Shown here piece after piece: positions 12,246 through 63,075 of a DNA stretch of 64,000 bases. Each line of letters opens with the position of its first letter. Positions within the stretch are counted from its first letter, which is position 1. Where the stretch lies: the NCBI GenBank assembly GCA_001661245.1, contig KV454011.1, positions 1,080,724 through 1,144,723 on the forward strand, in the 5' to 3' direction. A model generated the notes under the pieces. That model saw only the letters and a list, made by a program, of their open reading frames with translations, did not search any database and was not told where the DNA came from. This DNA is from Pachysolen tannophilus NRRL Y-2460. Its lineage: Eukaryota. A program made the position numbers and the translations under genes.

Positions 12246-13412
12246 ATGTCTGAGCAGCCAGAAGATCATGGTGAGGATTTAGGGAATGATGGTTTACATT
12301 CTGAATTACCTCCTGTTCCATCACTGCTTATAAAGACAATTCAACCTTTATTAAATAGATCAAAAGAATTAATTTCAATTGAACCAATTATATCATATTT
12401 TTGTAAATTAGATGCTGTTGAATTAATATTAGATAAAAAATTACATTTAACTTCAAATGAAATTTCAAGTTTTACAATGTCATTATTGGATCATATTGAA
12501 TTTTTGAAAAAAAATTTACCACAAGAAGAATTAAATATTATTAATGATAAGGATAAATCTTATAAATATGTTGAAGATTTTGCAATTGCTATATTTAATA
12601 AAAGTTATTTGGATGTTATAAATCATACAACTTCAAAATCAACAGTTTCTACTTTTAATGCATCAATTGTTTTTTTAAATTTATTAAAATTATGGAATGA
12701 TGGAATATTAAATCCAGAAATATTAATGAAATTAAAATATGCAAAATTTCATCTGATGAGAATAATTAAAGATTATAAAGAGGGAAAAGATCCAAATGAT
12801 TATATGCCTCCAGAAGATTTAACAAGAGATGTACAGAATGAAATTGATGAATCATTATCAGGAACAAATCATTTGGAAAAGGAAAATGATGAGGAAATTT
12901 TATTAAAAAAAACTTCTTTTATAAATAATCAACCTAATAATAAAGATTTTTCATTGCCACAAGTACCAAACTTTATTGACAAAGAAGAAGATGAAAAAAA
13001 GGAAATACCAAATCCTCCTTCTTTACCAAATGCTCCAAATTTTACAGACTACCAACAAAGTTCAGGGCAAAATGATCACTTCTCTTCTCCATCTCCCGTC
13101 AGCCATATACCGACATCACCATCGCTGCTTCCACCTACATCTACTGATGAACAACCCCCACACTCACCTTCGGTCTTACCTTCGGTCTTACCTTCAGTCT
13201 CACAAACTAATAAAGCTCCCTCCTCTCACCAGAGAAAGACAAGTTCCTCATCTACAAAATACAACGTTGATGAAATCATTACACAAGAACAAAAAATATC
13301 TAAAGCACAAAAATATTGTAAATTTGCTGTAAGTGCATTGAATTATGAAGATATTGAAACTGCAATACAAGAATTGAAAAATGCTTTAAATTTATTAGAA
13401 AAAGAAGAATAA
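12246..13412 (+). CDS. VTA1: Vps4 cofactor Vta1 (ESCRT)
   Basis: N-terminal MIT-like region (PIISYFCKL, KLKYAKFH..I..GKDPN), Pro-rich linker, C-terminal VSL domain (AQKYCKFAVSALNYEDIETAIQEL). Confidence 0.92.
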   Translation: MSEQPEDHGEDLGNDGLHSELPPVPSLLIKTIQPLLNRSKELISIEPIISYFCKLDAVELILDKKLHLTSNEISSFTMSLLDHIEFLKKNLPQEELNIINDKDKSYKYVEDFAIAIFNKSYLDVINHTTSKSTVSTFNASIVFLNLLKLWNDGILNPEILMKLKYAKFHLMRIIKDYKEGKDPNDYMPPEDLTRDVQNEIDESLSGTNHLEKENDEEILLKKTSFINNQPNNKDFSLPQVPNFIDKEEDEKKEIPNPPSLPNAPNFTDYQQSSGQNDHFSSPSPVSHIPTSPSLLPPTSTDEQPPHSPSVLPSVLPSVSQTNKAPSSHQRKTSSSSTKYNVDEIITQEQKISKAQKYCKFAVSALNYEDIETAIQELKNALNLLEKEE

Positions 13413-13701
13413 TTAAATTATACTATTAATTACTAAATCGTTTTTTAATAATAAATATTTATAAATGTATATTTCATTTTTCATTAAATATGGTTCTCTA
13501 TAATATCTTCAGCCTAACCATTTAAAATAGCAATGTAATCATGATTTACTTTAGGCCTTTCTAAGAAAAAAAAAAAAAAAGTGAAAAGGAAAATAAAATA
13601 AAAATAAAAGAAAATCACACATATAAAAGAAAAAAATTTTTATTAAAATAACAAGCCATAACTTTTAAAATCACAATAGAAAAAAAAAAATGAAAAACAA
13701 C

Positions 13702-16700
13702 CTAAAATTCTTCGGCATCTTTATATAAAGCACCATCATTATCACTACTATTATCACCAAGAGCATGATTTTTTTCTGACAGATCATCTTCTTCCACTCT
13801 TATTGTAGTATCTTTATCATTTTCGTATTCAGAATGATCTACTTCAGCCTTATCATCTTCTGGCTGTTCAGAAACAACAGGTATTTCGCTATTAATATTT
13901 GAACTAGATTCAAAAGGCGTCACAGGTGATACACTTTCATTTTCATGGTTACTGCCAGAATTTAACGTAAAGCTTGACGAAACTTGAAGATCATGTTTTC
14001 TTCTTAACCTGTCCCTAGCTCTCGAACTTCTTAATTCATTATTGGATGATGATCTACTCATGCTTTGTTCACTATTATTCGCTCTGATAGCTTCTAATAA
14101 ATGCCTTGCTCTTATTGCAACATCATCATCAGTTTCAGTAGGTGATATTGGAGATGCCACTTCACTTTGTGATGGGAAGTCATCGTTCATTAAAGATGCA
14201 GATGTAGGTAACGTCAATGGCTGTTGAGCATTTTCTGTAATAATTGATGTTGCCAGGTCATCACTTTCGGAATCACTTTCTTGTTGCTGCTCTTTTAATA
14301 ATGTCTCTGAAGTGGAGGACAATAATGAATCATTAGAAAAATTATTATTGTTTGATGGATCTAGGTTACCTTTCATTCTTCTTGCTAAAGCTCTTCTTCT
14401 AGCAGAAGCAGGATTTCCAACAGGCCCTGCTAACTTCAATTTTTCCAATAAGGCATCCATAACATTATCTTCCGGTTGGTCATCACCTTCAGTTGCTGAT
14501 TTTTCCTTACCGTTAGTGTTATTTCCATTTGCTGCATTGGCCTTTTCCATCATTCTAACTCTCCTTAAATATGCCAGTTCTTCCTCGTCTTTCTTGATAT
14601 TTTCCTTTCTAGCTCTTTCAAATTCATTAACAAAATCAGAAAATTTCTTGATAAATGAATTCCTAGAGAAAGAATCAGTAGGATCTTCTCCGAAATACCT
14701 CATTAATTTATCAAATTCGGCTAGTGTAATCTTGGCTTGTTCTTGTAATAGTTCACTCTTGCGTCTTGCTGCGGGTAATTTAGGTAGCACTCTAGCAAGA
14801 ACTCTATCTTCCGGATGGAATTTTGATGAATCGCTCAAGTTTCCAATATCAATTGATGAATCAATATTTTTGATTTGAGCTGAGAAATCTTTACAGTCAT
14901 TGGAAACTTGTTCTATTGATAACTTGGCAACTTCAAGACATTTCGATAGTTCATGGAAGAAATTCTTCTCTTCAGGATAAGTTCTCCTAATTATTTTTTC
15001 AACGTAATGCAAAAAAGTCATAGAATTCTTATCATCCTTCATAAAACTTAATCTTTGCAAAGTACTCAATTTGAAACCTTGGGCTTGTTTTGTAGTGTCA
15101 TTCATATAGTTTCCAACTGCCAATATTATATCAAAAATATGCCTGAGATTTTGAGAATTTTTTATACTCTCAACTGCTTCATCAAGAGTTCTCAATTTTG
15201 CAACCAAATCTTCATAATCCTTTTCGTAAGTACTTACAATTCTCAAAGCTCTAATCCTAGATTTCCAATAATGTTGCAAGTTATAGATCAATTCGAGGTA
15301 AATTCTGTCAGCCCGAGCCAATTCATTTGGATCCTTCTCTGGTGGTTTAATATCAGAAGTACCTGTTGTATAATCAGTGCTATATGGTTCTAGGTTTCTA
15401 GCTACACCATTTGGAATCTCCACTAATTCCGGTTTATCCAAGAACTCGAGCACAGCTATGTTATTTAATACAGATTTGTCACACCTTAAAATTTTCAAAA
15501 CAACTTGTTCATCACTATCACTTGAAAACATATGCAAATTGATTCCAAACTGTTGAGAAAGATCTCTGGACAAGAAAGAAACTTTTTCAACTTCACCTTT
15601 TCTTCTACTAGCTAATATCTTAGCTTCTCTTGCTGCAAAAATTCTTTCAATCTCATCAAAAATTCCTTTCTCCATTAAATCGTTTGCGACAGCTTCTGAA
15701 TTTAATTCTTGCCAGAAAGAATCTTCAGTGTTATCAATCTTATCCCAATGTAATTGTTTCAACTTCTTCTTCGGTCTTGGAAATTTATCAAACAGATTAG
15801 GAATTGGAGACAGCGGTAAGGGACTTGCTGTTTTAAGCTTTCCATTTGGATCAGGTAATGGTGGAGCTGGCGGTGGAGGGGCACCATCTTTGCCTTGTAA
15901 AAACGGAGGAGGTGGAGGGGGTGGAGGAGCTGATGAGGTAGATTTGTTATCGAAAAATGGAGGTGGAGGTGGAGGTGGCGGCGGTGGAGGAGGCAGAGCA
16001 GCAGCACCAGTTTTGTTGAATAAATCAGCTGGTAAAGGCGGTGGTGGTGGTGGTGGCAGAGTATTGTTGATAGGCGGTGTATTTAATGCTTCATTTTTCT
16101 TCTCCACTGATTCGACTTTTGAAACAATTTCTGAGTCTTCCGCTTTGTCAACCTCATAAACATCCTCATTTAGATCATCAGATTTATCATCGGATATCGC
16201 TGACGCCTTGCCAACTTTTGAAGTTAATTCTTTTAAAAATTTAGGTTCCATTCCGGCACTTCTGTTGATTGAATCATTTGAAAAACGTGAAATTTCACCA
16301 CTCACCACATTTTCTGATACTGGCTTAATTTTTCCTTTTATATACTTAGCTTCGAGAGCAGCTAATCTATCATTATCATTGTTGCTATTTGAAGCAGAAG
16401 ATAAATGTGAACGTATGGACAACAGTCTTTTAAAAGTAGCGAAATCTTCTTTTTCCTTTGGAGACCGAAGTAATTTCGATTCTAAATCCTTTGCTAATTC
16501 TTCAACTTCATCCAACTCTCTTTCTAACTTACCATGAGAAGATGGATCCAAGGTTTTGTACTCGGATGCAAAAGCATCGCTATCATCATCATCATCGTCA
16601 TCATCCAAAGAGAAATCAATATTGAAATCCAGAAATTTAGATTCTAATTCTTTTAATCTTTCCAAAGCCAAGTAACGTTGCTTTTTAATAAATTCTTGTT

Positions 16701-19587
16701 TCGATAGGTCATGTTGATATTTAGCAATATCATTTGACTCTTTTTGTAAAGATTTTAATTTGTCTCTCAATTTTTCTAATTTTGCAAAATCATCTTGCTT
16801 AGCTGGTCTCAATGAAACTGGAGGTTGATGCTGCTGCTGTGGGTTTTGCGGTAAAGGCGGAAGCAGCTTCTCTTTCTTAGGTCTCTCAATATCAACAAAA
16901 TCAGTCATTTCCAATTCTCTCGCCTGTTGTAAGACATCATCCATTTGATCTCTCAAAACTCTTAATCTTGGTGATGGATCAACACCAACATTTCCATACT
17001 TTCTACTCTCAGCTTTATATTCAAATTTTTTCCTTTCAATTTGATCTTGAAGTCTTTTAATTAACTCGTTTTTAGTATTACCAGCTTTTATTCCAGAAGC
17101 AGGTCTATTAGTGTTTGCATTCTGTTCAGAAGAAATTATACCATTATTTTGTAAAAGTATAAACATCTCTCTCATTTCTAATTCTTGTTCATGTTTTTCT
17201 AATATTTTCTTCCTCTTTATTTCTTCTATTTCTTCCATAAGTTCATTATTCATTCTTCTCTGTTTAGAAATAAGTAATGACTGTTCACTTAGTTCTTGTT
17301 TTAATCTATCAATTAGTCCATCTGTACCCATACTCAATTGTCTCAACAATTCATCTCTTTCAGCAAAGGCTTCTTCAGCTTTCTTTTGGGCTTCTCTCGA
17401 GTCCAATATTGCTCTGCGTGCAACATCATCAGTTTGCAAAGACGAATACAACGTATTTATAGCTATATTCAAAGCTGTATCATCGTCCGCAGATGCTGCT
17501 GAAGACATTGAAATCTTTGATATTAAACCATCAATTAATTTAAAATGTCTTGTAATATCAGGATTATTTGCAGTTTTTGATGGATCAGTTTGAGATAAAA
17601 ATAAATGTTGAATTGCAGATTTCAAATATTTTTCAGAATCAGTACCTTTTGTCTTCTCCCATAATCTGCTTATAACTGAGATTGGATCTTCTAAATTGAC
17701 ATCTTCATTTTCTAATTGTTTCAATTGATCAAAATCTTGTAATTCTAGATCTTCATACCTTAATATTTGTTCATTAAGTATATCATAATCCAACAGTCTA
17801 AATTTATCAAAGACTTCAAATAATCCACATTTTTTTAAAAGAGATCTAATATGCAATCTTTGTCTTAAATCAGAAGAACCAGAAACCATAGTATTAATTA
17901 ATAACATTGTAGTTAGACAATATTCTAATAATTGACCTTCACTACTTATTCCTGCCATTTTCATTTCTTCACTAGCACCAACTAAAGATCCCATTTTACC
18001 TCTACCATCTAAAGTTTTTGATATGAATTGAATCCATTTTTCATATCTTTTTGAATTAGAAGTAGTTGTATCACTTATAGAAGAAGATGAAGAAACAATA
18101 CTTCTTGTTGGAGATGCACTTCTTGCTGTTACTGATCTTCTCTTTTTCTGTTCTTGTTTTTCATAATATGCAATATGAAAGTTATAACCTACAGGGCCTT
18201 CCATTACTTTTAATATTTGATTATAACCAGTTTCATCATTTGATTTTAATTTCCAATGTCCAACAAATGTTAACATATCTGTAACGTGTTTTCTAGTTTG
18301 AATTCTTGATGAAAAAAGAGCAGAAGATACAGCACTGGAAAATATTTTTGATTGAATAGCAGAACTAGCACCATCTGGAAGATTAATTAAATTTTTTAAA
18401 CACCTAATAATTGCAATTTCTTTTTCTAATAATATATTATAATCTTCTGAAGGATAATAAAAATTTGGAGTATTTATTAATTCACCTTCAACTGGTTGTT
18501 GTTTTTGTGTTTGTTGTAATGAAGTTGGTGTAATGAATGTAGGATCAGTTTTATATAATTTTAATAACAAATTACATAATGCAATAACACCTTGAGAATC
18601 AATAAAAGTTTTAACCCAATTTACTTCTTCAGTTCTAATAGAAACAGACAATGCACCTAATCTAGCCACTGTTATCTTATTACCTATAATATTTTTAACA
18701 TAAAATTCCGGAGTTAATAATTCTTCATCATTTATTTGTCTTTTATTATAAACCAGAGGAGATGCACCAGGTACAGGTTGACTCAGATACAGTTGTGGAT
18801 TTTGATGTTTTAATCTTTTCTGTTTTTTATAATCTGCTAATTTATCCTGGTAAATTAACATCCATTTTTTTTGAGCAGAATAATTTTTCATTTCTGTCTT
18901 TGCCTTTTCAGGTAAATTTTCAAAATCTCTCTTTGCCATTAATTCATCAAACATGCTATGTATTACTCTTTCATCTTTCGGTTGCTCTAATTTAAAATCA
19001 GCAGATAAAGAATGTTTATGAGCTTTAACATAACTCCCATCTTTCTTTTGACTATTTGATGAATTTACTGTTTTAACTGTATGCATTGAATTTACTGTTA
19101 TATTTGTAGGAATACTTCTTAAATCATAAAGGCTACTACCAGCATTACTTCCAGTATACCTATGTTGTGAATCAAGAAAATTATTATTAGTATGATGTTG
19201 ATGATTATTATTATGATGATGATGATTACCGTTATTTGTATTATTATGATTATGATTAACCGCCGTTGATGTTGAAGTAGAAATAGATGATTTCCTACTT
19301 GGTGATATTTGAATAGGCGCTGAAATTGAATTATGTGATAGCGCCCTTACCGGTGATGAATTACTATTCTTATTAAATAATGTACTTGCAGAAGACATAT
19401 TCGATGAAATACTATTTTGTCTCTTTGTTGTTTCTTGAGTTTCTTCTTGATTTAAATTTTTGGTAGAAGTTTTCCCCAACTTGTTTTTAAAATTAAAAAT
19501 CGACCCTGTTGGCGACTTCAATTCCCCATTATTAGATGAGTTGGAAGATGAAGGTCGCTTTGAGTTTTCACTTTGTAAACGTTTCAT
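13702..19587 (-). CDS. BNI1: Formin Bni1 (GBD/FH3, FH1, FH2, DAD)
   Basis: 1961 aa. GRGKMGSLVGAS, poly-Pro FH1, FH2 motifs (PKKKLKQLHWDKI, ILAVGNYMND, AQGFKLSTLQRL), DAD motif VMDALLEKL. Confidence 0.93.
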   Translation of the reverse strand: MKRLQSENSKRPSSSNSSNNGELKSPTGSIFNFKNKLGKTSTKNLNQEETQETTKRQNSISSNMSSASTLFNKNSNSSPVRALSHNSISAPIQISPSRKSSISTSTSTAVNHNHNNTNNGNHHHHNNNHQHHTNNNFLDSQHRYTGSNAGSSLYDLRSIPTNITVNSMHTVKTVNSSNSQKKDGSYVKAHKHSLSADFKLEQPKDERVIHSMFDELMAKRDFENLPEKAKTEMKNYSAQKKWMLIYQDKLADYKKQKRLKHQNPQLYLSQPVPGASPLVYNKRQINDEELLTPEFYVKNIIGNKITVARLGALSVSIRTEEVNWVKTFIDSQGVIALCNLLLKLYKTDPTFITPTSLQQTQKQQPVEGELINTPNFYYPSEDYNILLEKEIAIIRCLKNLINLPDGASSAIQSKIFSSAVSSALFSSRIQTRKHVTDMLTFVGHWKLKSNDETGYNQILKVMEGPVGYNFHIAYYEKQEQKKRRSVTARSASPTRSIVSSSSSISDTTTSNSKRYEKWIQFISKTLDGRGKMGSLVGASEEMKMAGISSEGQLLEYCLTTMLLINTMVSGSSDLRQRLHIRSLLKKCGLFEVFDKFRLLDYDILNEQILRYEDLELQDFDQLKQLENEDVNLEDPISVISRLWEKTKGTDSEKYLKSAIQHLFLSQTDPSKTANNPDITRHFKLIDGLISKISMSSAASADDDTALNIAINTLYSSLQTDDVARRAILDSREAQKKAEEAFAERDELLRQLSMGTDGLIDRLKQELSEQSLLISKQRRMNNELMEEIEEIKRKKILEKHEQELEMREMFILLQNNGIISSEQNANTNRPASGIKAGNTKNELIKRLQDQIERKKFEYKAESRKYGNVGVDPSPRLRVLRDQMDDVLQQARELEMTDFVDIERPKKEKLLPPLPQNPQQQHQPPVSLRPAKQDDFAKLEKLRDKLKSLQKESNDIAKYQHDLSKQEFIKKQRYLALERLKELESKFLDFNIDFSLDDDDDDDDSDAFASEYKTLDPSSHGKLERELDEVEELAKDLESKLLRSPKEKEDFATFKRLLSIRSHLSSASNSNNDNDRLAALEAKYIKGKIKPVSENVVSGEISRFSNDSINRSAGMEPKFLKELTSKVGKASAISDDKSDDLNEDVYEVDKAEDSEIVSKVESVEKKNEALNTPPINNTLPPPPPPPLPADLFNKTGAAALPPPPPPPPPPPPFFDNKSTSSAPPPPPPPPFLQGKDGAPPPPAPPLPDPNGKLKTASPLPLSPIPNLFDKFPRPKKKLKQLHWDKIDNTEDSFWQELNSEAVANDLMEKGIFDEIERIFAAREAKILASRRKGEVEKVSFLSRDLSQQFGINLHMFSSDSDEQVVLKILRCDKSVLNNIAVLEFLDKPELVEIPNGVARNLEPYSTDYTTGTSDIKPPEKDPNELARADRIYLELIYNLQHYWKSRIRALRIVSTYEKDYEDLVAKLRTLDEAVESIKNSQNLRHIFDIILAVGNYMNDTTKQAQGFKLSTLQRLSFMKDDKNSMTFLHYVEKIIRRTYPEEKNFFHELSKCLEVAKLSIEQVSNDCKDFSAQIKNIDSSIDIGNLSDSSKFHPEDRVLARVLPKLPAARRKSELLQEQAKITLAEFDKLMRYFGEDPTDSFSRNSFIKKFSDFVNEFERARKENIKKDEEELAYLRRVRMMEKANAANGNNTNGKEKSATEGDDQPEDNVMDALLEKLKLAGPVGNPASARRRALARRMKGNLDPSNNNNFSNDSLLSSTSETLLKEQQQESDSESDDLATSIITENAQQPLTLPTSASLMNDDFPSQSEVASPISPTETDDDVAIRARHLLEAIRANNSEQSMSRSSSNNELRSSRARDRLRRKHDLQVSSSFTLNSGSNHENESVSPVTPFESSSNINSEIPVVSEQPEDDKAEVDHSEYENDKDTTIRVEEDDLSEKNHALGDNSSDNDGALYKDAEEF

Positions 19588-24819: not shown

Positions 24820-27800
24820 TCAATCATCGTCACTGTCGATGACTCTTCTTACTTTTTTTCTGATGACGGGTTCATCATCTTGAGAACCAAGTTCTTCATC
24901 ATCATCTTCTTCTTTATTAACAATCGATCTCTTGGAAGCATTCCTACTAGAATCAGAGTTCAAGGATGGCATAGTTGTATAACTGACCTCCTCCTGTTCG
25001 TCGGAGCCTGAGGAGTTATCAGAATCAGAGTCCAATGAATTATTTTGAGTTTTATTTTCATGAGATTCATGTTCAAGATCGCTCTGTATAGCAGTTACGG
25101 ATCCTTTTTCTGCCTGTGTTTCATTAAAATCAAGTGCGAAACTATTTTGGCTTAAAGAATCTTCACGAGAATTAATAGATGGAATCTGTGGTGTTATTGA
25201 AGTTGCATGTTGTGAAGGAGAAAAAAACTCAGATCTGTCTCTGAATGTTTTCCAACTTCCATCAGAAAACATTTTTATCAGTTCGTCAGTTAATTTCCCA
25301 CCATTCATATCCAACAAACGCCTTAACAATCTTTCTTTCTCAAAAAATTCCGCTGTGGCCTCATCATCAGACTCATCATCAACAAATTCAGAAGATTTGA
25401 ACGTGTGATAGCTTTGTTTAGCTTTTTGCTGTTCTTCACCTTCGTCATCAGAAATTGCGTACTTTGGAAGAGCTTTGTCTCTATTGGTTTTCGACGATGT
25501 CTTCTTTTTCTTGCTTTTAATTACTTCTGAGGACCTGTTACTAGCCTTTTTAATTCCCTTTTTCAATTTCCGTCTCGCTTGACCTAATGGAAGTTTAGTT
25601 ACATTATCATCTTTACCGTGTTCGTCAATTCTCTTTTCGAGTTCATCCAATTGATCCAACAGTGATGTATCAGCTGCATTTTTACCGCCGCCTTCGAGCT
25701 CAAATGCAATTGCTTCATCGTCTTCATCGCTATAGCCATCATTCGCAGTAACAAAATTATCATATCCAAAATCGCCATCTTCCTGTTCTTCATAATACAC
25801 GTTCTTAGATATTATATAATCAGCTGCTGTTTTCCCTTGTGGGAAAACAACAGGCTCCTGTAAATATTTAGAAACAAAACTCAATTGTAATAATAAAGTG
25901 TCCAAATTAACGTCAGTAGCATAAAGGATACACCTTTCCAAAATTGTAGAAGGCAACCGGAAACCAAGAGTTTGTAAAAGAAGTCTCAACCTACCGTTTT
26001 TCAATAAAAGTTTTCTGTCTTCAGATGTTTTAGTCTCAAAAACAGCATCAGGAGCAGTTGTTTCATCTATAGCAGAAACGTTTTTATCACTTCCGTCTCC
26101 CAGTTCTTGCTCAAGAACCCTGAATTGCTCTTGTGTACTAATCCAGTCACTTCTGCTGTCAGAAATTTTTGAAAGCTGTTCTTTGACCAACTCTACAAGT
26201 TCTCTCTCTCCTTCATCTATCATTGAGGCAACGATTATAGAAATTTTTTCCTCTAACTCCTCAAAGGAGTTTTCATTTCCTGGATTCAATTTCTTGGTCT
26301 TAACAACTAAATCTTTAGCAACTGTGATGTCCTTCAGTTCCAGTTCTTTGAATAACTCGCCATGTTCCAAATAATATCTGATTCTATTCTCCTTAAATAC
26401 GGATGTAAATGGAAGTTCCACAAACAACGCTGGGGTTTTCTCCAATTGCTTTACCAACTGTTTCATGAATAATTTTGTAAAATTGATAACTTCAGATTTA
26501 ACAGGTGAAGATCTTGGAAGGGAAATTGGCTCATTTCCACAAATTTGGTGAAGTAATAGCATAAAGTCCAAACGATATAGTTCTATATGATGTTCACTCT
26601 TGTAGAAGACTCGATGAAAATATGATAAGCACCTTTTAATATCTTGCAGTTCTAATTCTTGGAATCTGGAAAATAATGCTATATGAGTTTGAATGGTGTC
26701 TTTATGTATAAACTTGGCTTGATGTCTAGCAAAGTCTATTTTCTTCCGGGTGACACTTTTGGCGTCTTCTTCATCACTTGAGTCCACCTCCGAATCGTCT
26801 ACTTCTTGTTGATCATTTTCATTATTTGATTTTTTGGGTTTCCGCTTGCGAACAACTTCAGTGGTGATTACTTTTTCCTGTTTAGAAAATCTCTCCAAAA
26901 TTTTTAAGACAACATAGACAAACTGCACAGTGGCTAGCAAGTAATCAGGAGAAATTTTATATGCATTTTTCGGAATATTTGCAAGTAAATCTAATGTATC
27001 TGTTCTGTTAAATAACCTTTCTTTTATTCCTTCTGAAATCAAAATATCTCTTGTCGCAGTAGCTGTATTTCCTATTAGATCAGCAAATGATAAAACTTGT
27101 TTGAAACACTCCATTGTAGACTGTACTAATGACCATAATCTACCTTCATAAGCACTTCGCATTGAAGTAATTACCACCGCTATAAATTCCTGCTCTAAGG
27201 CCCTTGTAAATAACCCGTTATCTATTTCCTGAACTTCGTTTGCTATTCTTCTTTCAGTTTCAAACTCCAATGTCCAACCTACAAGCATGAAAAATTGATA
27301 TTTATGCATCGATAAAAAGGCATCAGGATCTGCTGTAATCCTATTTCTAATAGAGTAGACCAAAGGATTAAAACATCCCTCTATAAAACTTGCGATAAAC
27401 TCTTTTAAAATGTGGATTGCTTGAATATTTAAGAATCTTTCTATGTTTTGTTTTCCTAATTGTTCGTCAATTTCACCATCACCTCTAACTTTTAAGTTTA
27501 AAGTACCAGTATTTGTTAGACGCCAATTTTTCGATGCATCTAATTGTGCTAATGCTGATGAGTTCTCAGTTATACCTTTCTGGCCAGAAATTGTCAATCT
27601 TCCATGATCTACAGTTTGCAATGAAAGTAATGTACCAAACCTAGCATGTCTTGCAGAAGTTCCCTTAACAAGTAGTTTTTTCAATTTTGCCTCTTGTTGC
27701 AATAAATCCTGAAGTTGAAAATTTGCTTCTGAACTGATTTCTGTCGTTTGTGGAGAAATTGTTTGCTGTTTTGAATTATTGATGATATTTGTAGAATTGT

Positions 27801-28893
27801 GAAGTGGAGTGGAGTGAGGTTGCAGTTGTGTTTTTTCGATAAACAACTTTCGTGTATTCACACCTTTAGTAATATAATAAAAACATTCTAAACATGAGGT
27901 TCCAAGTATACTACTATCAAATTCGGAACCAAGGGTGTTTGTAATGGTAAGGAAAAAATCTAATACTTTGTTTTTTTCAAAGCTTAAGAGAATAGTGTTC
28001 AATGAAATATCATCCAAACTAACGTCTTCTGGTAAATTTTCCTGGATTATAGTTTGTTTTGAAGTCTTTGATGTTGATACCGTCAGATCTGCTGGTTCAA
28101 TTTTCAAAATATTTCTGAAAAATACAATGCACAATTTCAATATAGTATTATCTCTTGGAGTCCTATCTTCTTTAGATTTTTTCAAAATTGGCAAGGTTAA
28201 TCGCACAACTGCCCTCAACGCTTTACCATTTGAATATGCTAAAATGTGTTTCTTGTATGTAATTTGTGCTTTCTTTAATGCTGCGTAATATTTTACTTGA
28301 TTATTTGTTGACTCTTTAGTTAATTGGAAAGGCCATGTCAATGGAACTAATAATTCCACTATAACTAAGATTATTTTCTCCATATAATTTTTATTTTTCA
28401 CCTTCTTTTTACTTGATTCATCTTCCCATTGTGCTAAAATTACAATCAAGTCATTTACAACTAGTCCAGACTCTGCACAAGCTATTGCCACATCCAATTT
28501 TCTAGTTTCTTCATCCACAGATTTTAACCATCTTTTTATATCTTTCAAACAAGCCAAAGCATCATCACCTAATTTATATGGTTGTGGAACCTGATCAGAA
28601 GAATAATCAATACCACCAAGAGCAGAGCACAAAATGGATATATGTGCTTTAAGTATCTGTTCTGTTTTGTTTAAAGCAGATGAATTTAGGTTCACTGCTT
28701 CTCCGATTGGATCCTTCTTTACTTGAACAGTTTTTTCTTCTTCTTCAATTTCGAGCTCTTCACTTTCTAAAGAGTGGTCTGTTCGACTGCCTTCACTGTC
28801 GTTAAAGTGGTTCATATCACCTTCATCATCAATTATAAATGAATCTTCTTCATCAGGCAGCAAGGACGACATTTTTTCCAAGGTTGAATTCAT
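24820..28893 (-). CDS. TOF1: Replication fork protection complex subunit Tof1/Swi1 (Timeless)
   Basis: ILCSALGG, YKLGDDALACLKDIKRWL, RHARFGTLLS and LYRLDF Timeless motifs. First ATG at 28893; the track starts at GTG 28902. Confidence 0.92.
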   Translation of the reverse strand: MNSTLEKMSSLLPDEEDSFIIDDEGDMNHFNDSEGSRTDHSLESEELEIEEEEKTVQVKKDPIGEAVNLNSSALNKTEQILKAHISILCSALGGIDYSSDQVPQPYKLGDDALACLKDIKRWLKSVDEETRKLDVAIACAESGLVVNDLIVILAQWEDESSKKKVKNKNYMEKIILVIVELLVPLTWPFQLTKESTNNQVKYYAALKKAQITYKKHILAYSNGKALRAVVRLTLPILKKSKEDRTPRDNTILKLCIVFFRNILKIEPADLTVSTSKTSKQTIIQENLPEDVSLDDISLNTILLSFEKNKVLDFFLTITNTLGSEFDSSILGTSCLECFYYITKGVNTRKLFIEKTQLQPHSTPLHNSTNIINNSKQQTISPQTTEISSEANFQLQDLLQQEAKLKKLLVKGTSARHARFGTLLSLQTVDHGRLTISGQKGITENSSALAQLDASKNWRLTNTGTLNLKVRGDGEIDEQLGKQNIERFLNIQAIHILKEFIASFIEGCFNPLVYSIRNRITADPDAFLSMHKYQFFMLVGWTLEFETERRIANEVQEIDNGLFTRALEQEFIAVVITSMRSAYEGRLWSLVQSTMECFKQVLSFADLIGNTATATRDILISEGIKERLFNRTDTLDLLANIPKNAYKISPDYLLATVQFVYVVLKILERFSKQEKVITTEVVRKRKPKKSNNENDQQEVDDSEVDSSDEEDAKSVTRKKIDFARHQAKFIHKDTIQTHIALFSRFQELELQDIKRCLSYFHRVFYKSEHHIELYRLDFMLLLHQICGNEPISLPRSSPVKSEVINFTKLFMKQLVKQLEKTPALFVELPFTSVFKENRIRYYLEHGELFKELELKDITVAKDLVVKTKKLNPGNENSFEELEEKISIIVASMIDEGERELVELVKEQLSKISDSRSDWISTQEQFRVLEQELGDGSDKNVSAIDETTAPDAVFETKTSEDRKLLLKNGRLRLLLQTLGFRLPSTILERCILYATDVNLDTLLLQLSFVSKYLQEPVVFPQGKTAADYIISKNVYYEEQEDGDFGYDNFVTANDGYSDEDDEAIAFELEGGGKNAADTSLLDQLDELEKRIDEHGKDDNVTKLPLGQARRKLKKGIKKASNRSSEVIKSKKKKTSSKTNRDKALPKYAISDDEGEEQQKAKQSYHTFKSSEFVDDESDDEATAEFFEKERLLRRLLDMNGGKLTDELIKMFSDGSWKTFRDRSEFFSPSQHATSITPQIPSINSREDSLSQNSFALDFNETQAEKGSVTAIQSDLEHESHENKTQNNSLDSDSDNSSGSDEQEEVSYTTMPSLNSDSSRNASKRSIVNKEEDDDEELGSQDDEPVIRKKVRRVIDSDDD

Positions 28894-30986: not shown

Positions 30987-31263
30987 TCATAAATTCATGA
31001 AAGAGCCCAAGCTGCTCATATTATTCCCACTTTCTCGGGACTGATCACTGAAATTCCCCAAACTTTTACCACTATCCTCACTACGTTCCTCGTCATCTAT
31101 ACTATCTTCATCTTCATCTTCGAAACCGTCATCGTCATTTTCTTCATCATCATCTTCATCATCTTCTTCTTCATTATCGTCGTCCTCATCGTTGTAAACA
31201 CCAAGATCTGCTCCTTTAACATCAGATTCTCCTTGGTTTCGACTCTGTAGAATATTGGTATTA

Positions 31264-31302: not shown

Positions 31303-32131
31303 TCGGCGTTAGAAGGACTATTGGATGAATATCCATAATAATTTGAATTATCATATTTAGTTATATTTGTTGGACTTATTCCTTCCATATCAAATTCTGT
31401 TGCTGGCGTTGCAGAAAATTCTTCTCTTAATTGTTGATCAACAGACTGTGCGGTTCTTAAAGTTGTTGGAACCAATGTAGGTAAATCTGAATTTGAACCC
31501 ACGGTTGCATGATGATCCATATGCATTAAAGAATTTTTGGAAAGAGGTCTATTACTATTTTTAGGTCTATTCTTTGGATTTTTCCTATGATAAGGTCTTT
31601 TCGGTTTAACACTATCCTTTCTCAGTCTTAATTCTTCCAGTTCAAATTCTCTATATTTCGCCAAATAAATTTTTAAAGTTTCTGCGTAATTTTCAAAACC
31701 TAAAGTATACATGGAAAATAAAATATCTTCCCCATTCAAAGTTTTCCTTTTTTCAAGAAGACATTTTTCTGCAGCTTGAGAGGTTATAAAAGATATAAAT
31801 TCACTAACACATTCTTGAGCAGTTTCCTTTGCTTCTTTTGAAAGTTTCCCATGAGGCGGCAATGCATTTCTCATTACTCTTCCAACTATGATATAAAAAA
31901 AAAAAAAAAAAAATTTTTACAGTTAGTAAATTAAGTAAAATAAAAAAGTATATTAATATATAGGTTTAAAATTTTAAACTTACCATTCGCAATTGGCAAA
32001 TACCTATCCTGCTCCCTGACCTCAAACAACGGCGGAGATTGCAGCAGCAGCAGCTGCTGCTGCTCACTGCTATGGGCTCTTGTTTCTTCTTTATCTTGGT
32101 TTTCATCTGGAATTCTTATAAATTCAGACAT
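30987..32131 (-). CDS. HAP3: CCAAT-binding factor subunit Hap3 (NF-YB) with long Asn/acidic tail; exons 32131-31984 and 31885-30987; 348 aa
   Basis: Spliced [52 protein letters not shown] histone-fold motif. Confidence 0.9.
31886..31983 (-). other. Spliceosomal intron of HAP3 (98 nt)
   Basis: GTAAGT donor, TACTAAC branch at 31928-31922, T tract, TAG acceptor; phase 1 restores the conserved ANVGR. Confidence 0.92.
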
Positions 32132-40608: not shown

Positions 40609-43600
40609 CTATGGTTTTCTGTTACCTAGATTTATCTTCAATTTCAATGTTTTGTTTTGTTGTTGTTGTTGTTGCTGTTGCTGTTGTTGAGCTGGTAGTG
40701 GTGGTGAGGGAAGTGGTGGTGGAAGTGAAGGAGAAACTCCTGAAGACGATTCTTCCTTTTTATTATTGTCTGTGTCTTTGATGTCTTCCGTTTCATTTGA
40801 AGCACCAACTGTAGTCAATGGGGAAGGCGATTTTTTGTGTCTTTCTTTTGTAGTAGGATCTGAAGATGGAGGTAGTAGGAGATGAGAAGAAGGGGAAGGA
40901 ACAGGATCAGTATTATTAAGTGGACTGATTTCACCATCTTCGGTTTTTTTGTCATTTAGAATTTCGGGTAATAATTTTGGATTTGTAGAAGCTTGAATCC
41001 CATTCAGCAAATTCTTAGATGGCAGCTCAGTTTTTGAAGACTTTTTCAAAGTTTGATCAGATTTTTTAGTCTTAATTTTGATTTGAATTGATGGTTTAGT
41101 TGAAGACATTTTTCTATCAACAGTAACCAAGGAACTGCTGTCGGAGGAATTTTTGCTTTTTAATTGCACAGGTTCGGATATTTCCTGGAATTGGTCACTC
41201 GATAGTATTAGCTTCTTGTGGTTACTATTATTGATGATTCTAACATAACGCAATGGGGCATTTTTTGATGATCTTATAATTTCGCTATTAATGATTTTCG
41301 GAAGTTTTGAATTCCATTCTTTTAATCTAGTCAAAGATGATTGCTTTTGAAATTTCAATACTACATTTGAGTTCATGTTGAGCTTTGACTTACCCTTAGC
41401 TTTAGAAGTGACTGGAGGAACTGATGGAGTCAGTGATGGAGTCAGTGAAGGGGCCTTTGACGTAGCAGTTCCTGTATTTGGTGTTTTAATCTTCAAGTTT
41501 ACTGGCGGTAAAACAGGTGCTGCGGAAGCACGAGCTTTCAAATCTAACTTGAGTTTTGGGATTGACTGAGTGGTTGGAACTTCTTCTTTAACAGAAGAGT
41601 TTTTTCGAGAATGAGAAGGAATTTTGATACTGATTGCTTGTTTCTTTTCTTTCTTAACATTTGAATCGTTAATTATGAGTTTTGGGACTTGAATCTTCAA
41701 TCTGCTCTGCCTTTTCAAAATAATTTCAAATACTTTCTTTTGAGAAGGAACCTTACCTTCTTCTTCGTTAATGTTGTTGTGACTGTTGTTATCGTCATTC
41801 AACACAGATTCATCTTCTATATTAACTTTTCCTATTTTAGCCACTATTTTTCTATCGCTTGGAATCGATTCCAAAGTGATGGTAAATGAATCTTTTGGAA
41901 CATACAATATATCACAAATATCAAACAAATTTCTCTTTGAGTGTATATCAATCAAACAAGAATGTAATGAATCCCAAATTTGTTTCCTTAAAGTTGTCCC
42001 AAAAGAATAATCTCTACGTAATATCTCAATGGCACCAGATATTGTTGCTCTGGCAAAAGCATCCCTCCTTGAATTTAATTCATTTTTGTTTGAACCATCT
42101 TCTATAAAAATAACACCAGACCCTTGTTTACCATTTGCATTACCATTACCATTATTTGTACGACGAATATCTTGAGTACCACCATTACCTTCTGTAGTAT
42201 TATTATCTACTTCTTGTTGATGGTAAACTTGCTCAAATTCTTCATCGTCTAAAACAGAAGGTGTTCCATGAATTGCAGCAACACTAATAACTTTAGCTAA
42301 TATGTTAAACAATCCAGACTTGATGCGAGGACTTTTATCAAGTTTAGCAACTGTGAAGAAATAATTTAAAATAGGTGTGTTTTTCAATCCACCCAATATC
42401 AACAAACCTTCAAAAGCCAATAGCCTGATATCTGCACCTAGAGCTGGATTTGTATATGCGATTAATTCTTTATGAGATAATTTACAAAGACCTAACCTAG
42501 CTAACTTGATTTTTTCTTTTAAGATCGCTAAGGTGATGATATTATGATATGAAGGTAAATACTTGTCCAATTTCAAAATCCTGCTTATTTCATCATTTGC
42601 TTCTTGCAAAAAATTCACAACTTCTTTATCACCTGTTTCTCTATCAATTAAAAAACCTCCAGAATTCTGAATAGCCGTGAATAAAGACTGAATAATAATA
42701 GCAATATAAAAACAATCTTCAAACTGATTGTTCAAGTTGTCGTTATATTTCAATAGATTCAATAAAATTTTTCGGATCTCAATTGGACTTTCACCGTTGC
42801 TTAGTTTAATTGAACTTAACGCCTTCGGTATTATTTTTAACACAAAAAATTTTGTAAAATTAGAGAAATCATTAGGTAATGGAATATAATTTGCTGCGCT
42901 TATAGGAGACAAGATATTGTATTCACTTTTGAAACAATACAATTCATGAAAAGCCTTCAATAAGTGCTTCATTCCAATAAAACCAACCTCTTCTTTTGCA
43001 AATTTGGCAAGACCCATTGCCGCTTCTAATCTAACACCATAAAAATATCTTTCATCCATCAATGTCCTTACCAATATACTTGAATATAAAGAAGAAGGCT
43101 TGATAGCATTACTAAAAAATCTAACACTATCAATTTGTGCCTCAACATCTCTATCCTGTTGTAATTGGGATTGAAACATGTAGTCTGACTGATTCATATG
43201 GATCTTACAAATCCATTCAAAATCTGCATCTATTCTGACCCATTCAAAAGCTTCATTTGCTTGATTTTCTTCATCTTCTTTAGTCCATTCTTGTAAGTTC
43301 CACTCTGTAATTTCTTCTGGAGATATTAAGACATCACCAAGGCGATTAACTTTTTCTTCAGTTTCTTGAACTTGTAACTGCTGTCTTTGATGTGTTATCA
43401 TTTCCTCCTCCTCATCATCAAAATTATTAGCATCATCTTGCAGTTTCCGTTTGCCTCTTCTAAATCTTCTATATTTTGTATTATATTGAATGTCCAATTT
43501 GGTAAAACCTTCTTTCAAGTCAACAATATGTTCATAAGGTGTACCATCTGCTTCATGGATTCTAATAGTCATTGGGCCTTGAAAAACAGCTGGAACATTA

Positions 43601-45834
43601 AAATCAGAATCATCATTTTCAATGTAGTTCATTGCATCACTGACAAAGTTATCATCACCATGTCTGGACTCATTACCTATATTTGCAGTGATCATTCCAT
43701 CTTCATTTCTGTGATTTAGCTCTTGGACTTGAACCTGCCTAATACCCATTTCAATAATCATTCTTTTTTTATTAAAACGTTGAGTCACACGGAAAACTGG
43801 AGTACCAGATGAATAAACCCAATTCGAGAAAAAATTGTCCAATCTATTATGGTTAACTTTTTCACATACATGTTTGAAATGATGCGTAGATAAACAATTA
43901 CCAGCAAATAAATCATTTGACATTGCTTGTAAAAAAATTTTTGGAATCACTCTGGATAAGCCAAATGATTTATCAGTCTTTGTCATACGTCGATCCAAGA
44001 TAAATAACACTAAAGATGATTTCAATTTTAAAAATTGGAAATCAGTAGAATCATTTATTGGGAATTCAAAAAATTGATTTGCTAATGGTCTCTTACCAAT
44101 ATCTTGTTCACATATTAAATCACATTTTTGTTTATTTCTATATTTATATTCATTAACACCGAATAATGTTTTCAAAAATTGTGAAGCCATGAATTGTGAA
44201 ATACCAATAACACACCAAAAATCATTATGAGTCTTTGGTAGAACATTAATACCAGACCATTGTTGAGCAAAATTTTCTGCCAAAAATTCAGTTACTGAAA
44301 AAATTGGTTCTATTTTATTCGCACTGTAAAGAAAATTATCATTTATAATTGATAAACCAGCAAATGAACAAGAATCTGAAGATAAATTCTCCAAAAAGAT
44401 CATACTGAAACTATTGAAAGGAAAAGATCCAAATTCTTTTGAATAAAAATCAAGAGCTTTATAAAGAAAGATGCAAGTATTTAATACTTCATCTTTTCTA
44501 TTTGGTAAATGATATATTGTAAATGGAACAGTATTTGCACTATTGGAAATATTATTAGTTTCTTCTTCATAACTAGTTGGATTTTCTGTTAAATTAATTA
44601 ACGGCCATTTCTCAAAAGGTCCAATTGCAAAACCTAAATGTTGTGGTGCAATTGGATTATATATTTGGAAGCTGACAACTTTTTTACTCAAATCAATTGG
44701 ATGTGGAAATTCTTTATAATTCAACATTTCTGGTGATGCCACAACAAGCTCTCGTCTCCAATCAATACCAACATTTTCTTGAGTTTTATGACCTTCATCT
44801 CCATCTTCATTGTCTACATCTTCTTCTTCTTCCTCGTTTTCATCATCATCGTCCTGATTTCTTTGCTGTTTCTTCAAAGCTATTTCAGCAGCTTTAGTTC
44901 CAATTATCTTACTCTCTCCAATATCTCCTACAGTCTTGGGGAAACTTAAAGTTATATCCCAAGTTGCCTTTTCATATAAGTTATCAATACATGGAACCCA
45001 AGAACTTGCAGAACAACCAAAATCATTATTTATAGTATGACAAAACCATTTATCCTTTGGTATCTGAGTTTGTAAACCTCCATTAAATAAAATACCATTT
45101 TTAGGGTTTTTAATTTCATAATTAATTTTTATTGAAATTGAAGTATAAACTTGTTCTTGGAAAATTCCCATAGAATGTGGAGTATTATGATTAGATTTAG
45201 ATGGAGAAAAATTTAATTCATTCACATCTTGTGCTTTCAATTTTAAGTTCTCTGGTAAATATATGACTAATTCTTCTGTATTCGTAAGCAACAACGGCGT
45301 ATATTGAGGATTTTGAGATGCAATCAGTGGATCCGTATTTATATTAAGCCCACTCAAATGATTGGTATTTGCAAATAACGGATGAAACTTGCCCTTATAA
45401 AAATGATGCTGATTAACAGTCAAACTCTTGGACGTAATATCATGGAATGGATTGTACTTAAAACCAGACATATTATCATCTGTATTGATCGACTCAACAT
45501 CATGGTGGTTGATGAAAAATTCATTATTTTGATTAAAATCAGTATATTTATAATTAACCCTTTGATTATTAACAAATACCTCCTGAATGTTGACATTACG
45601 ACAATCCAACTTCACTTTTTTCAACTTCAGATCCAACGGCAACACAGTAATCTCAGTTTCCCCAACTATAGACTGATTCGACAAATCCACATCAAGATTC
45701 ACCTTTTGATGAGCAATTCGTAATAATTGTCTCGAGGTAACCTCATTATTCACAGATGACTTATGTCTCCTCCCAAGAGTCGGCGTTTGATGAAGTGAAC
45801 TTATAGATGGATAGTCATATGGTAGCGTCGGCAT
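40609..45834 (-). CDS. TAF2: TFIID subunit Taf2 (M1 aminopeptidase-like fold)
   Basis: HQKVNLDVDL, SSWVPCID, ILDRRMTK, FQGPMTIRIHEADGTPYEHIV, EWVRIDADFEWIC, QLQQDRDVEAQ. Confidence 0.93.
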   Translation of the reverse strand: MPTLPYDYPSISSLHQTPTLGRRHKSSVNNEVTSRQLLRIAHQKVNLDVDLSNQSIVGETEITVLPLDLKLKKVKLDCRNVNIQEVFVNNQRVNYKYTDFNQNNEFFINHHDVESINTDDNMSGFKYNPFHDITSKSLTVNQHHFYKGKFHPLFANTNHLSGLNINTDPLIASQNPQYTPLLLTNTEELVIYLPENLKLKAQDVNELNFSPSKSNHNTPHSMGIFQEQVYTSISIKINYEIKNPKNGILFNGGLQTQIPKDKWFCHTINNDFGCSASSWVPCIDNLYEKATWDITLSFPKTVGDIGESKIIGTKAAEIALKKQQRNQDDDDENEEEEEDVDNEDGDEGHKTQENVGIDWRRELVVASPEMLNYKEFPHPIDLSKKVVSFQIYNPIAPQHLGFAIGPFEKWPLINLTENPTSYEEETNNISNSANTVPFTIYHLPNRKDEVLNTCIFLYKALDFYSKEFGSFPFNSFSMIFLENLSSDSCSFAGLSIINDNFLYSANKIEPIFSVTEFLAENFAQQWSGINVLPKTHNDFWCVIGISQFMASQFLKTLFGVNEYKYRNKQKCDLICEQDIGKRPLANQFFEFPINDSTDFQFLKLKSSLVLFILDRRMTKTDKSFGLSRVIPKIFLQAMSNDLFAGNCLSTHHFKHVCEKVNHNRLDNFFSNWVYSSGTPVFRVTQRFNKKRMIIEMGIRQVQVQELNHRNEDGMITANIGNESRHGDDNFVSDAMNYIENDDSDFNVPAVFQGPMTIRIHEADGTPYEHIVDLKEGFTKLDIQYNTKYRRFRRGKRKLQDDANNFDDEEEEMITHQRQQLQVQETEEKVNRLGDVLISPEEITEWNLQEWTKEDEENQANEAFEWVRIDADFEWICKIHMNQSDYMFQSQLQQDRDVEAQIDSVRFFSNAIKPSSLYSSILVRTLMDERYFYGVRLEAAMGLAKFAKEEVGFIGMKHLLKAFHELYCFKSEYNILSPISAANYIPLPNDFSNFTKFFVLKIIPKALSSIKLSNGESPIEIRKILLNLLKYNDNLNNQFEDCFYIAIIIQSLFTAIQNSGGFLIDRETGDKEVVNFLQEANDEISRILKLDKYLPSYHNIITLAILKEKIKLARLGLCKLSHKELIAYTNPALGADIRLLAFEGLLILGGLKNTPILNYFFTVAKLDKSPRIKSGLFNILAKVISVAAIHGTPSVLDDEEFEQVYHQQEVDNNTTEGNGGTQDIRRTNNGNGNANGKQGSGVIFIEDGSNKNELNSRRDAFARATISGAIEILRRDYSFGTTLRKQIWDSLHSCLIDIHSKRNLFDICDILYVPKDSFTITLESIPSDRKIVAKIGKVNIEDESVLNDDNNSHNNINEEEGKVPSQKKVFEIILKRQSRLKIQVPKLIINDSNVKKEKKQAISIKIPSHSRKNSSVKEEVPTTQSIPKLKLDLKARASAAPVLPPVNLKIKTPNTGTATSKAPSLTPSLTPSVPPVTSKAKGKSKLNMNSNVVLKFQKQSSLTRLKEWNSKLPKIINSEIIRSSKNAPLRYVRIINNSNHKKLILSSDQFQEISEPVQLKSKNSSDSSSLVTVDRKMSSTKPSIQIKIKTKKSDQTLKKSSKTELPSKNLLNGIQASTNPKLLPEILNDKKTEDGEISPLNNTDPVPSPSSHLLLPPSSDPTTKERHKKSPSPLTTVGASNETEDIKDTDNNKKEESSSGVSPSLPPPLPSPPLPAQQQQQQQQQQQNKTLKLKINLGNRKP

Positions 45835-54491: not shown

Positions 54492-55611
54492 ATGGTAAGT
54501 TTGAAAATTGGTATTTAGAAATTAGGGTTTTCTTTGATTGATACTAACGGCGTTTCTGTGGGAATAGTTTTCTGGGTTTGCTTCTCAATTTGCACAATTC
54601 AATATACCTTCAAACTATGAGGCATGGTTTAGATGCTATCCAATTGCTATGATGTCTGATTTGATAAGAAAAGAGGATGCTAATTTTGGTGGGAAGATTT
54701 TTTTACCTCCATCATCTTTGAATCAATTGACTCAGTTAAATATAAGGTATCCGATGTTATTTGAATTAGAGAATGAAGCTTTAGGTATTAAGACTCATAG
54801 TGGTGTTTTAGAGTTTGTTGCTGAAGAAGGAAGAGCTTATTTACCACAATGGATGATGGAAACATTACAAGTTCAACCTGGATCGTTAATCAAGGTGGCC
54901 AATGCTGATTTGCCCTCTGGATCATTTGTTAGAATTCAACCTCAATCTGAAGAATTTTTAGATATTTCTGATCCTAAAGCTGTATTAGAAAATTGTTTAA
55001 GAAAATTTTCTACTTTAACAGTTGATGATATTATTCAAATATCTTATAATGAGAAATTATATCATATTAAAGTTTTGGAAGTTAAACCAGAATCTGTTAC
55101 ACATAGTATATGTGTTGTTGAAACTGATTTAGAAACTGATTTTGCTCCACCTCCAGGGTATGAAGAAAAAATGGAAAAATTACAAAAAGAAAATAAGGAA
55201 AGGCTGGCTGCTTTACAAAAAAACCCCAATTCTAATCTGGATATAGCTAACAGGCACGTAGTGACTGAGCTTGGTAGTATTGGTAGTCAAATTAATTATG
55301 ATCAATTATTAGAAAAGGGTAAAAAGGGCAATGAAAAATGGGAAGGTAAAGGTTTTAAATTATCTGGGAAGGGTAAATCCACAGAAAAAATTGAATCTAA
55401 AAATAATAATGCCAATTTTGATAATGTCAAGACTTTGAAATTAGATGGACCTCCAGTTCCACTTAATTTAGAACCTAACGTATTATTTTTCGGATTCCCA
55501 TATATCCCACCTGCACTTGAAGAAAATGAAAAAGATAAACAAGATAGTAAAACTAATGCTTTCCAAGGTGAGGGCCAATCCTTAAGAGTAAACAGAAAAA
55601 GAAAAAAATAG
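54492..55611 (+). CDS. UFD1: Cdc48 cofactor Ufd1; exons 54492-54494 (ATG only) and 54568-55611
   Basis: Spliced M|FSGFASQF..FRCYPIAMM..ANFGGKIFLPPSSL; THSGVLEFVAEEGR; SHP-like FQGEGQSL. Confidence 0.95.
54495..54567 (+). other. UFD1 intron (73 nt) directly after the start codon
   Basis: GTAAGT donor, TACTAAC at 54542-54548, TAG at 54565-54567. Confidence 0.93.
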
Positions 55612-55759: not shown

Positions 55760-55851
55760 AGCCCGACGCGGGGGTCGAACCCGCAACCTTTTGATATCCA
55801 ATTTTAGAATTTCTTAAGAGTCAAACGCTCTACCGATTGAGCTAGCCAGGC
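55760..55851 (-). tRNA. tRNA-Lys(CTT) with a 19-nt intron (55796-55814)
   Basis: Minus strand GCCTGGCTAGCTCAATCGGTAGAGCGTTTGACT-CTT-A[intron]ATCAAAAGGTTGCGGGTTCGACCCCCGCGTCGGGCT folds into a cloverleaf with A and B boxes; anticodon at 55818-55816. Confidence 0.95.
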
Positions 55852-62010: not shown

Positions 62011-62277
62011 TCTCTTCTTCTCCGTAATTCTTTTCTTCTAAAAAACAAATGAATATTCTCCCTATTACTGTTTTAATTTTCGATTTAAATTTTAATATAA
62101 TATTTTCATCTATAATAATAGATCTATCTATAAGAGAATCTGTTTTTTCTTTTTTTTTCTTTTTTTCTTTTTTTTTTTTTTTTTTTTTGAGTTATTTTTT
62201 TTTTATTTTATTTTTTGTTAACTAATTAAAAATTAGATGAACAATTTAAATATATTTTATTATATATGGATTAATAG

Positions 62278-63075
62278 ATGACTACTGCTCATAGACCGAC
62301 GTTTGACCATGCCAAAGGTGTGAAGAATCAAAACAAGACTTCTATAGTTCATGCGAGATCGTTGCCGGCTCATCGACAGTTGAAATTTAGGAAAAGAAGA
62401 TTACAAGCAGAAGAAGAAGAAGAAGATGGTGATGATGAAGAATTTAAAACTTTAAATGTTGATTTAAATAAAGCTAAGAAATCTGCTCTGGAATTCAAGT
62501 TAGAATTATTGCTGAAGGAGCAAAAGTATTATAAGGAGAACAATAAATTGTATAAAGATAGGTATTTGAGGAATGATTCAGATGAGCATGAAGAGACTTT
62601 GATGATTGAAGCTAATGGCGGTAGTGAAGAAACGTTTGAACAAAGAAGGCAAAAATTATTGGAAGAAACAAGGGATGTTGATGCTTCATCGAGTGAGGAG
62701 GAGGACGACGATAACGATAACGAGGAGGAAGAACCTGAAGAACCCGAAGAAGAAGAAGAAGAAGAAGAAGAACAAGAGGGTAGTTCAGAATCTGAGGATG
62801 ATTCTGAAGATGAGACTGAGCAATTAATGAAAGAGCTTGCCAAGATTAAAAAAGAACGAGAACAAGAAAAATTGCTGCTGGCAAAAGAGCTGCAAGAACG
62901 TGAGATGATGGGCAAGAATCCATTACTAAACAATAATTCCAATGGGAGAAGTTGGAGGAATGAGACAGTTTTCCAAAAACAAAATAAAATTGGTGGGAAT
63001 AAAGAAGATGGGTTTGTTAATGATTTGTTAAGAAATGAATTCCACAAGAAATTCATGGATAGGTTTATAAAATAA
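62278..63075 (+). CDS. CWC15: Pre-mRNA splicing factor Cwc15
   Basis: MTTAHRPTFDHAKG, LMKELAKIKKER, NPLLN, FVNDLLRNEFHKKFMDRFIK. Confidence 0.95.
   Translation: MTTAHRPTFDHAKGVKNQNKTSIVHARSLPAHRQLKFRKRRLQAEEEEEDGDDEEFKTLNVDLNKAKKSALEFKLELLLKEQKYYKENNKLYKDRYLRNDSDEHEETLMIEANGGSEETFEQRRQKLLEETRDVDASSSEEEDDDNDNEEEEPEEPEEEEEEEEEQEGSSESEDDSEDETEQLMKELAKIKKEREQEKLLLAKELQEREMMGKNPLLNNNSNGRSWRNETVFQKQNKIGGNKEDGFVNDLLRNEFHKKFMDRFIK

Follow-up and report, generated by a model that had tools for sequence, protein, structure and literature searches.

The subject of this report is the meaning of the codon CTG (CUG in the messenger) in a 64-kb stretch of Pachysolen tannophilus NRRL Y-2460 DNA (64,000 nucleotides of contig KV454011.1), referred to here in its full length as the window. 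The window is AT-rich, with a G+C content of 31.5%, and its budding-yeast genes are densely packed and intron-poor. It contains 22 open reading frames (ORFs) of at least 150 amino acids, in which in-frame CTG accounts for 102 of 16,027 codons, and the first exon of HAP3 adds another 4. A first-pass annotation, made from the sequence alone, had proposed that these codons specify alanine. Our analysis indicates that the source of the window is very probably a budding yeast belonging to the CUG-Ala lineage (the nuclear code of Pachysolen tannophilus, NCBI translation table 26) and that its in-frame CTG is read as alanine. Most of the ORFs could be named by Pfam, including those already named in the first-pass annotation. 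The CTG-bearing genes on which the argument turns are given below, with positions counted from the first letter of the window.

12246..13412, plus strand: VTA1, three CTG (residues 27, 170 and 294); Pfam Vta1 (5e-39) and Vta1_C
13702..19587, minus strand: BNI1 formin, 14 CTG; Pfam FH2, FH3 and GBD
24820..28893, minus strand: TOF1 (Timeless), nine CTG; Pfam TIMELESS (1e-81)
31990..32130, minus strand: first exon of HAP3 (limits approximate), four CTG; stop-to-stop frame
37380..40235, minus strand: SLP1-like SUN-domain gene, eight CTG; Pfam Sad1_UNC
40609..45834, minus strand: TAF2, seven CTG; Pfam TAF2 domains and PDB chain 6hqa_A (Taf2), E = 0
54649..55611, plus strand: UFD1 (second exon or main ORF), two CTG; Pfam UFD1_N1 and UFD1_N2
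62278..63075, plus strand: CWC15, five CTG (62488, 62512, 62875, 62878 and 62890); Pfam Cwf_Cwc_15 (3e-42)

Every CTG codon that had been listed for VTA1, BNI1, TAF2, UFD1, CWC15 and HAP3 was found in frame at its reported position, and the six genes had been correctly named. Residue 170 of VTA1 is encoded by CTG at 12753-12755 in the context KYAKFH[CTG]MRI, and CWC15 contains ELL[CTG]KE at 62512 and EKL[CTG][CTG]AKE[CTG]QERE at 62875, 62878 and 62890. BNI1 carries GAAA[CTG]PPPP at 15996-15994 and UFD1 carries ER[CTG]AAL at 55204, while the TAF2 motif PS[CTG]TPS[CTG]TPS (CTG at 41445 and 41433) lies inside an unaligned C-terminal tail. The UFD1 ORF begins at the equivalent of Saccharomyces cerevisiae Ufd1 residue 34 and at position 15 of the PF03152 profile, so a first exon must be located upstream. 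The QQQ[CTG]4Q run of HAP3 is real and consists of four CTG codons at 32053-32042 of the minus strand. In the long HAP3 ORF (30987-31874) the CBFD_NFYB_HMF match starts at profile position 12, and the short CTG-bearing exon is situated upstream of it. Within that exon (32042-32062) (CAG)3 runs straight into (CTG)4 on the coding strand; together they form a short, perfect inverted repeat coding for QQQ and the four CTG positions. The window as a whole holds 8 occurrences of (CTG)3 or its complement against 0.12 expected, most of the others being coding-strand CAG (poly-glutamine) runs.

To evaluate the residues found opposite CTG in related proteins, deep homologue alignments were built for four of these genes (TOF1, 49 sequences; BNI1, 120; SLP1, 150; CWC15, 119). 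The CTG codons of the query were masked as X, so the alignments were unable to lean on any reading of the codon. A site was considered alignable when 50% or more of the homologues had a residue in its column, which retained 21 of the 36 CTG sites (29 at a looser occupancy), and a column was considered conserved when one residue made up at least 60% of it. The mean leucine fraction in the orthologs was 0.07 at the 21 CTG sites and 0.52 at 360 other leucine codons (Mann-Whitney P 5e-9). Conserved leucine columns held 164 other leucine codons and no CTG, where 13.2 CTG were expected (P 1e-6). A calibrated likelihood computed from the same alignments over the 21 sites placed leucine 15.7 nats below the best residue, and alanine outscored leucine in all 2000 of 2000 bootstraps. 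The conserved columns that do hold CTG are lysine, arginine, proline or glutamine columns. These results demonstrate that CTG is not used as a leucine codon in this DNA.

The individual genes differ in how informative their CTG sites are. The CTG sites of BNI1 fall off leucine-majority columns, the exception being a mixed leucine/proline column at residue 1265, and all eight CTG sites of SLP1 lie in variable or gappy columns. CWC15 offers five well-aligned helical columns, occupied mainly by arginine, by arginine, lysine or alanine, by alanine or lysine, by lysine and by glutamine, in which leucine reaches 0-3%, serine 0-2% and alanine 0, 15, 50, 9 and 7%, respectively. The first-pass annotation had described Ala-rich charged helices at these positions of fungal Cwc15; this holds for site 200, where alanine is the majority residue (59 of 119 homologues), and fails for the other four, which are arginine (99 of 119), arginine/lysine, lysine and glutamine with alanine at 0-15%. 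Alignments to PDB chains of CWC15, VTA1, TAF2, TFC4, UFD1 and ACL4 were poor in orthologs, and the majority of CTG sites landed in gaps or unaligned tails. Against S. cerevisiae Ufd1, UFD1 site 186 lies opposite a gap and site 197 opposite glycine, and residue 69 of TAF2, also a CTG codon, corresponds to proline in 6hqa_A and to alanine in human TAF2.

It is evidence from outside the window that decides for alanine, beginning with public sequence records. The public TOF1 record of the same DNA (P0001) has alanine at nine of nine CTG codons and, apart from these, differs from the standard-code translation only in a start 7 residues downstream. Exact-sequence look-ups were performed with the table-26 (CUG = Ala) translations of 13 window ORFs and with the table-1 (standard) and table-12 (CUG = Ser) translations of CWC15, VTA1 and UFD1. 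The exact table-26 translations of 6 of the 13 ORFs (CWC15, VTA1, TFC4, PIK1, SEC2 and ACL4, together containing 23 CTG codons) are public, with matches in NCBI, UniRef, nr and MetaClust, and none of the three table-1 and none of the three table-12 translations was found in public records. Public annotation of this DNA therefore already uses table 26. Five sequencing runs contain the stretch, and no RNA run is listed among them. The first-pass annotation had added that the recoding would be new if the species lay outside the known clade; this alternative does not apply, because table-26 translations are already deposited in NCBI and UniRef.

The position of the lineage was examined in a single-gene tree of BNI1 (26 rows; support by the Shimodaira-Hasegawa-like approximate likelihood ratio test, SH-aLRT), a set that holds no named Ala-clade sequence. 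The query pairs with its nearest relative on a separate deep branch (SH-aLRT 100), which groups with Komagataella, Ogataea, Brettanomyces and Candida arabinofermentans (98). This branch is excluded from the group of seven Candida/Debaryomyces/Clavispora rows (100) and is separate from Saccharomycopsis, and in this tree the query accordingly shows no membership of the Candida/Debaryomyces/Metschnikowia clade. According to Krassowski et al. (PMC5951914), the Ala clade separates deeply, inside Pichiaceae, from the Leu2 clade (Komagataella, Ogataea, Pichia). The place found here, beside Pichiaceae and outside the CUG-Ser clades, agrees with the one published for the CUG-Ala clade.

The remaining gene content includes two of the genes recovered in the look-ups and the sole tRNA gene of the window, as detected by ARAGORN.

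51181-54216, minus strand: TFC4 (TFIIIC tau131), a TPR protein of 1011 amino acids; PDB 8ffz_C and 6yj6_A, E 8e-185
55760-55851, minus strand: tRNA-Leu(TAA)
59415-60554, plus strand: ACL4, assembly chaperone of ribosomal protein L4; PDB 4ynv_A, E 2e-15, with weak TPR matches only in Pfam

Further genes named by Pfam encode an amino-acid permease, a fungal PH-like protein, a Swi6/Mbp1-like factor, SEC2, an AVT-type transporter, a subtilase, a cyclin, PIK1, an ENTH protein, an RWD protein and an SH3 protein. The second codon of TFC4 is CTG. The 90% cluster that contains the window's TFC4 (P0444) is represented by a 35-amino-acid ENA protein (P0445), a clustering oddity. The tRNA-Leu(TAA) gene measures 92 nt, a length that probably includes an intron.

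Several results weigh against alanine. In the likelihood over 21 sites alanine ranks fifth (glutamine 0, lysine -0.6, threonine -2.6, serine -2.9 and alanine -3.3 nats), and at the looser occupancy of 29 sites serine beats alanine in approximately 96% of bootstraps. Conserved alanine columns hold 51 GCN codons and no CTG, where 6.9 would be expected of an average alanine codon (P 6e-4); read as alanine, CTG makes up some 11-14% of the alanine codons overall. An alanine-majority column occurs at 1 of the 21 alignable CTG sites (CWC15 site 200), and the nearest relative's proteins (P0002 and P0053) show alanine at none of 16 aligned CTG sites. The leading example of the first-pass annotation, residue 170 of VTA1, had been presented as a position where Vta1 homologues have alanine; of the two orthologs compared, human VTA1 does (KYARWKATYI) while S. 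cerevisiae Vta1 has leucine (KYCKIYLSKL). Its principal argument, that CTG repeatedly adjoins GCN codons, was not borne out, since alanine makes up 13 of 204 neighbours (6.4%) against a background of 5.0% (P 0.22). Exact look-ups of the table-26 translations returned no match for 7 of the 13 ORFs (BNI1, TAF2, SLP1, AVT, RWD, ENTH and UFD1), probably because the public gene models differ in starts or introns, the UFD1 ORF being without its first exon. The annotation of the matched records is a depositor's choice rather than a measurement. Lastly, the only tRNA gene of the 64-kb window is the tRNA-Leu(TAA), which is not a CUG decoder, and ARAGORN detected no tRNA(CAG) there.

The first-pass annotation had also proposed tallying ortholog residues at CTG columns. 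Carried out here on four genes, this tally rejects leucine and leaves alanine, serine, threonine, glutamine and lysine within 3.3 nats of one another. The window alone thus can neither single out alanine nor separate it from serine. What the sequence offers in favor of alanine over serine are weak hints from the CWC15 columns and from the neighbour frequencies, in which alanine adjoins CTG at 6.4%, in line with its self-adjacency of 6.2%, and serine at 8.8% (18 of 204), below its self-adjacency of 14.8% (P 0.008). Two additional approaches were discarded. A context classifier (residues -3 to +3, trained on the window) ordered the candidates for CTG as proline, serine, threonine, glutamine and leucine; its controls failed, with the true residue first for 7 of 22 codons and the alanine codons GCG and GCC ranked 8th and 5th, and its CTG call is therefore worthless. 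A reciprocal test, which took leucine on conserved alanine columns of the nearest relatives as a sign of CTG = Ala there, was uninformative, as P0325 has leucine on 4 of 17 such columns, the true leucine codons of the query fall on 2 of 18, and P0053 and P0002 show nothing.

Among the competing explanations, the standard code would make CTG a rare leucine codon of an AT-rich genome that favours fast-evolving, disordered protein parts. The scarcity of the codon, its location mostly in variable regions, the leucine of S. cerevisiae Vta1 at one CTG site and the sizeable leucine minorities in two columns (34% at BNI1 1265 and 23% at TOF1 1205) are compatible with this, but the empty conserved leucine columns, the low leucine fraction, the 15.7-nat deficit, the presence of CTG on conserved lysine, arginine, proline and glutamine columns and the lack of any table-1 translation among the three sought in public records make it scarcely credible. 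A serine reading would imply that table 26 was wrongly applied, either to a CUG-Ser lineage member not recognised as such or to a yeast in which CUG passed to serine independently for a third time. Serine matches or slightly exceeds alanine in its fit to the columns (in both the 21-site likelihood and the 29-site bootstraps), and several CTG codons are found inside Ser/Thr/Pro-rich tracts such as the PS[CTG]TPS[CTG]TPS of TAF2. Much of this serine signal, however, originates from gappy, Ser-rich disordered columns in which serine is the background residue. Conserved serine columns hold 51 serine codons and no CTG (3.5 expected, P 0.027), serine is under-represented beside CTG relative to its own self-adjacency, and it reaches 0-2% in the five CWC15 columns. 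The BNI1 tree places the lineage outside Candida/Debaryomyces and apart from Saccharomycopsis, and the table-12 translations are missing from public records (0 of 3). Taken with these observations, a serine reading is very unlikely. A positive control for the column approach was available in the BNI1 alignment, where the homologues P0162, P0137 and P0164 have leucine on 23 of 35, 17 of 36 and 10 of 35 conserved serine columns, respectively. These three Logan proteins look like standard-code predictions from CUG-Ser yeasts with heavy CTG use.

Ambiguous or inefficient decoding, in which CUG would yield alanine mixed with another residue or would be poorly decoded, would explain why CTG is confined to unconstrained sites. 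In agreement with such an explanation, CTG avoids conserved columns of leucine, alanine and serine alike in the four aligned genes (13702-19587, 24820-28893, 37380-40235 and 62278-63075), and dual decoding does exist in yeasts, as in the stochastic Ser/Leu reading of CUG reported for Ascoidea asiatica (PMC6041473). In the Pachysolen report (PMC4937558), on the other hand, liquid chromatography-tandem mass spectrometry (LC-MS/MS) of P. tannophilus gives alanine at 97.2% of 907 fully supported CUG positions, with ambiguous peptides at 8 positions only. The avoidance also has a simpler mutational reason, as GCN must change at two bases, by way of valine or proline codons, to become CTG, and the sample behind it is four genes. 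We regard ambiguous decoding as very improbable.

Alanine thus remains the reading that we adopt. The proposal of the first-pass annotation, that CUG is alanine under the CUG-Ala code already known from yeasts, finds support, mostly in evidence beyond that on which it was founded (public translations, non-leucine columns and tree position). Its conclusion was right and its own reasoning weak, as regards the GCN neighbours, the VTA1 example and the inability of the columns to separate alanine from serine. The recoding is real and already known. We infer alanine as the residue actually inserted from the annotation and the literature.

The mechanism published for P. tannophilus would likewise apply to this DNA. 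The ancestral tRNA-Leu(CAG) would have been lost; the anticodon of a tRNA-Ala would then have mutated to CAG with retention of the alanine identity elements (G3:U70 and A73); and the mutated tRNA-Ala would have captured CUG, leading to every in-frame CTG being read as alanine. Codon reassignment driven by tRNA loss is the explanation favoured by the authors of the Pachysolen report (PMC4937558).

Comparison with the described CUG codes is consistent with this assignment. The window resembles the Pachysolen tannophilus code (table 26; clade of Pachysolen, Nakazawaea and Peterozyma, according to PMC4937558 and PMC5951914) in that CTG is not leucine, public records read it as alanine, the DNA is AT-rich, and the lineage branches deeply next to Komagataella, Ogataea and Brettanomyces. 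No difference in kind from that code was found, the quantitative one being the absence of CTG, in four genes, from the conserved alanine columns filled by 51 GCN codons. With the CUG-Ser1 code of Candida, Debaryomyces and relatives (table 12) it shares the removal of the same codon from leucine, its rarity and its location off conserved leucine positions, but differs in a lineage outside that clade, in the lack of public table-12 translations among the three tried and in the location of CTG off conserved serine columns. The CUG-Ser2 code (Ascoidea and Saccharomycopsis, with the stochastic reading reported for A. asiatica) is likewise a budding-yeast CUG reassignment; here the difference is that Saccharomycopsis crataegensis is placed in the opposite half of the BNI1 tree and that the window gives no sign of dual decoding.

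The quantitative difference deserves separate consideration. According to the Pachysolen report, CUG is located "mainly at conserved alanine positions" (PMC4937558), a remark with which the lack of CTG on conserved alanine columns in our four genes sits uneasily. We tentatively suggest, at somewhat less than even confidence, that CTG is no ordinary alanine codon in this lineage, being kept off conserved alanine positions and found at tolerant sites where other yeasts have proline, glutamine, arginine, lysine or leucine. A likely cause is that no GCN codon can become CTG in one step, so that CTG would enter genes from CCG, CAG, CGG and leucine codons wherever change is tolerated.

The literature already covers the reassignment together with its tRNA and proteomic proof (2016) and the extent of the clade (2018), and nothing scientifically new about the code itself comes from this case. 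In practical terms, the CTG-holding genes of the window need table 26, as standard-code pipelines give leucine for alanine at no fewer than 106 codons in 22 genes. As a lesson of method, a 64-kb window is sufficient to reject leucine firmly, while ortholog columns alone do not tell alanine from serine. If the placement pattern is true genome-wide, the distribution of CTG would record the re-entry of the codon after reassignment, through single-base steps from CCG, CAG, CGG and leucine codons and not from GCN. It may, in addition, reflect a persistent cost of decoding CUG, and would qualify the published statement on conserved alanine positions.

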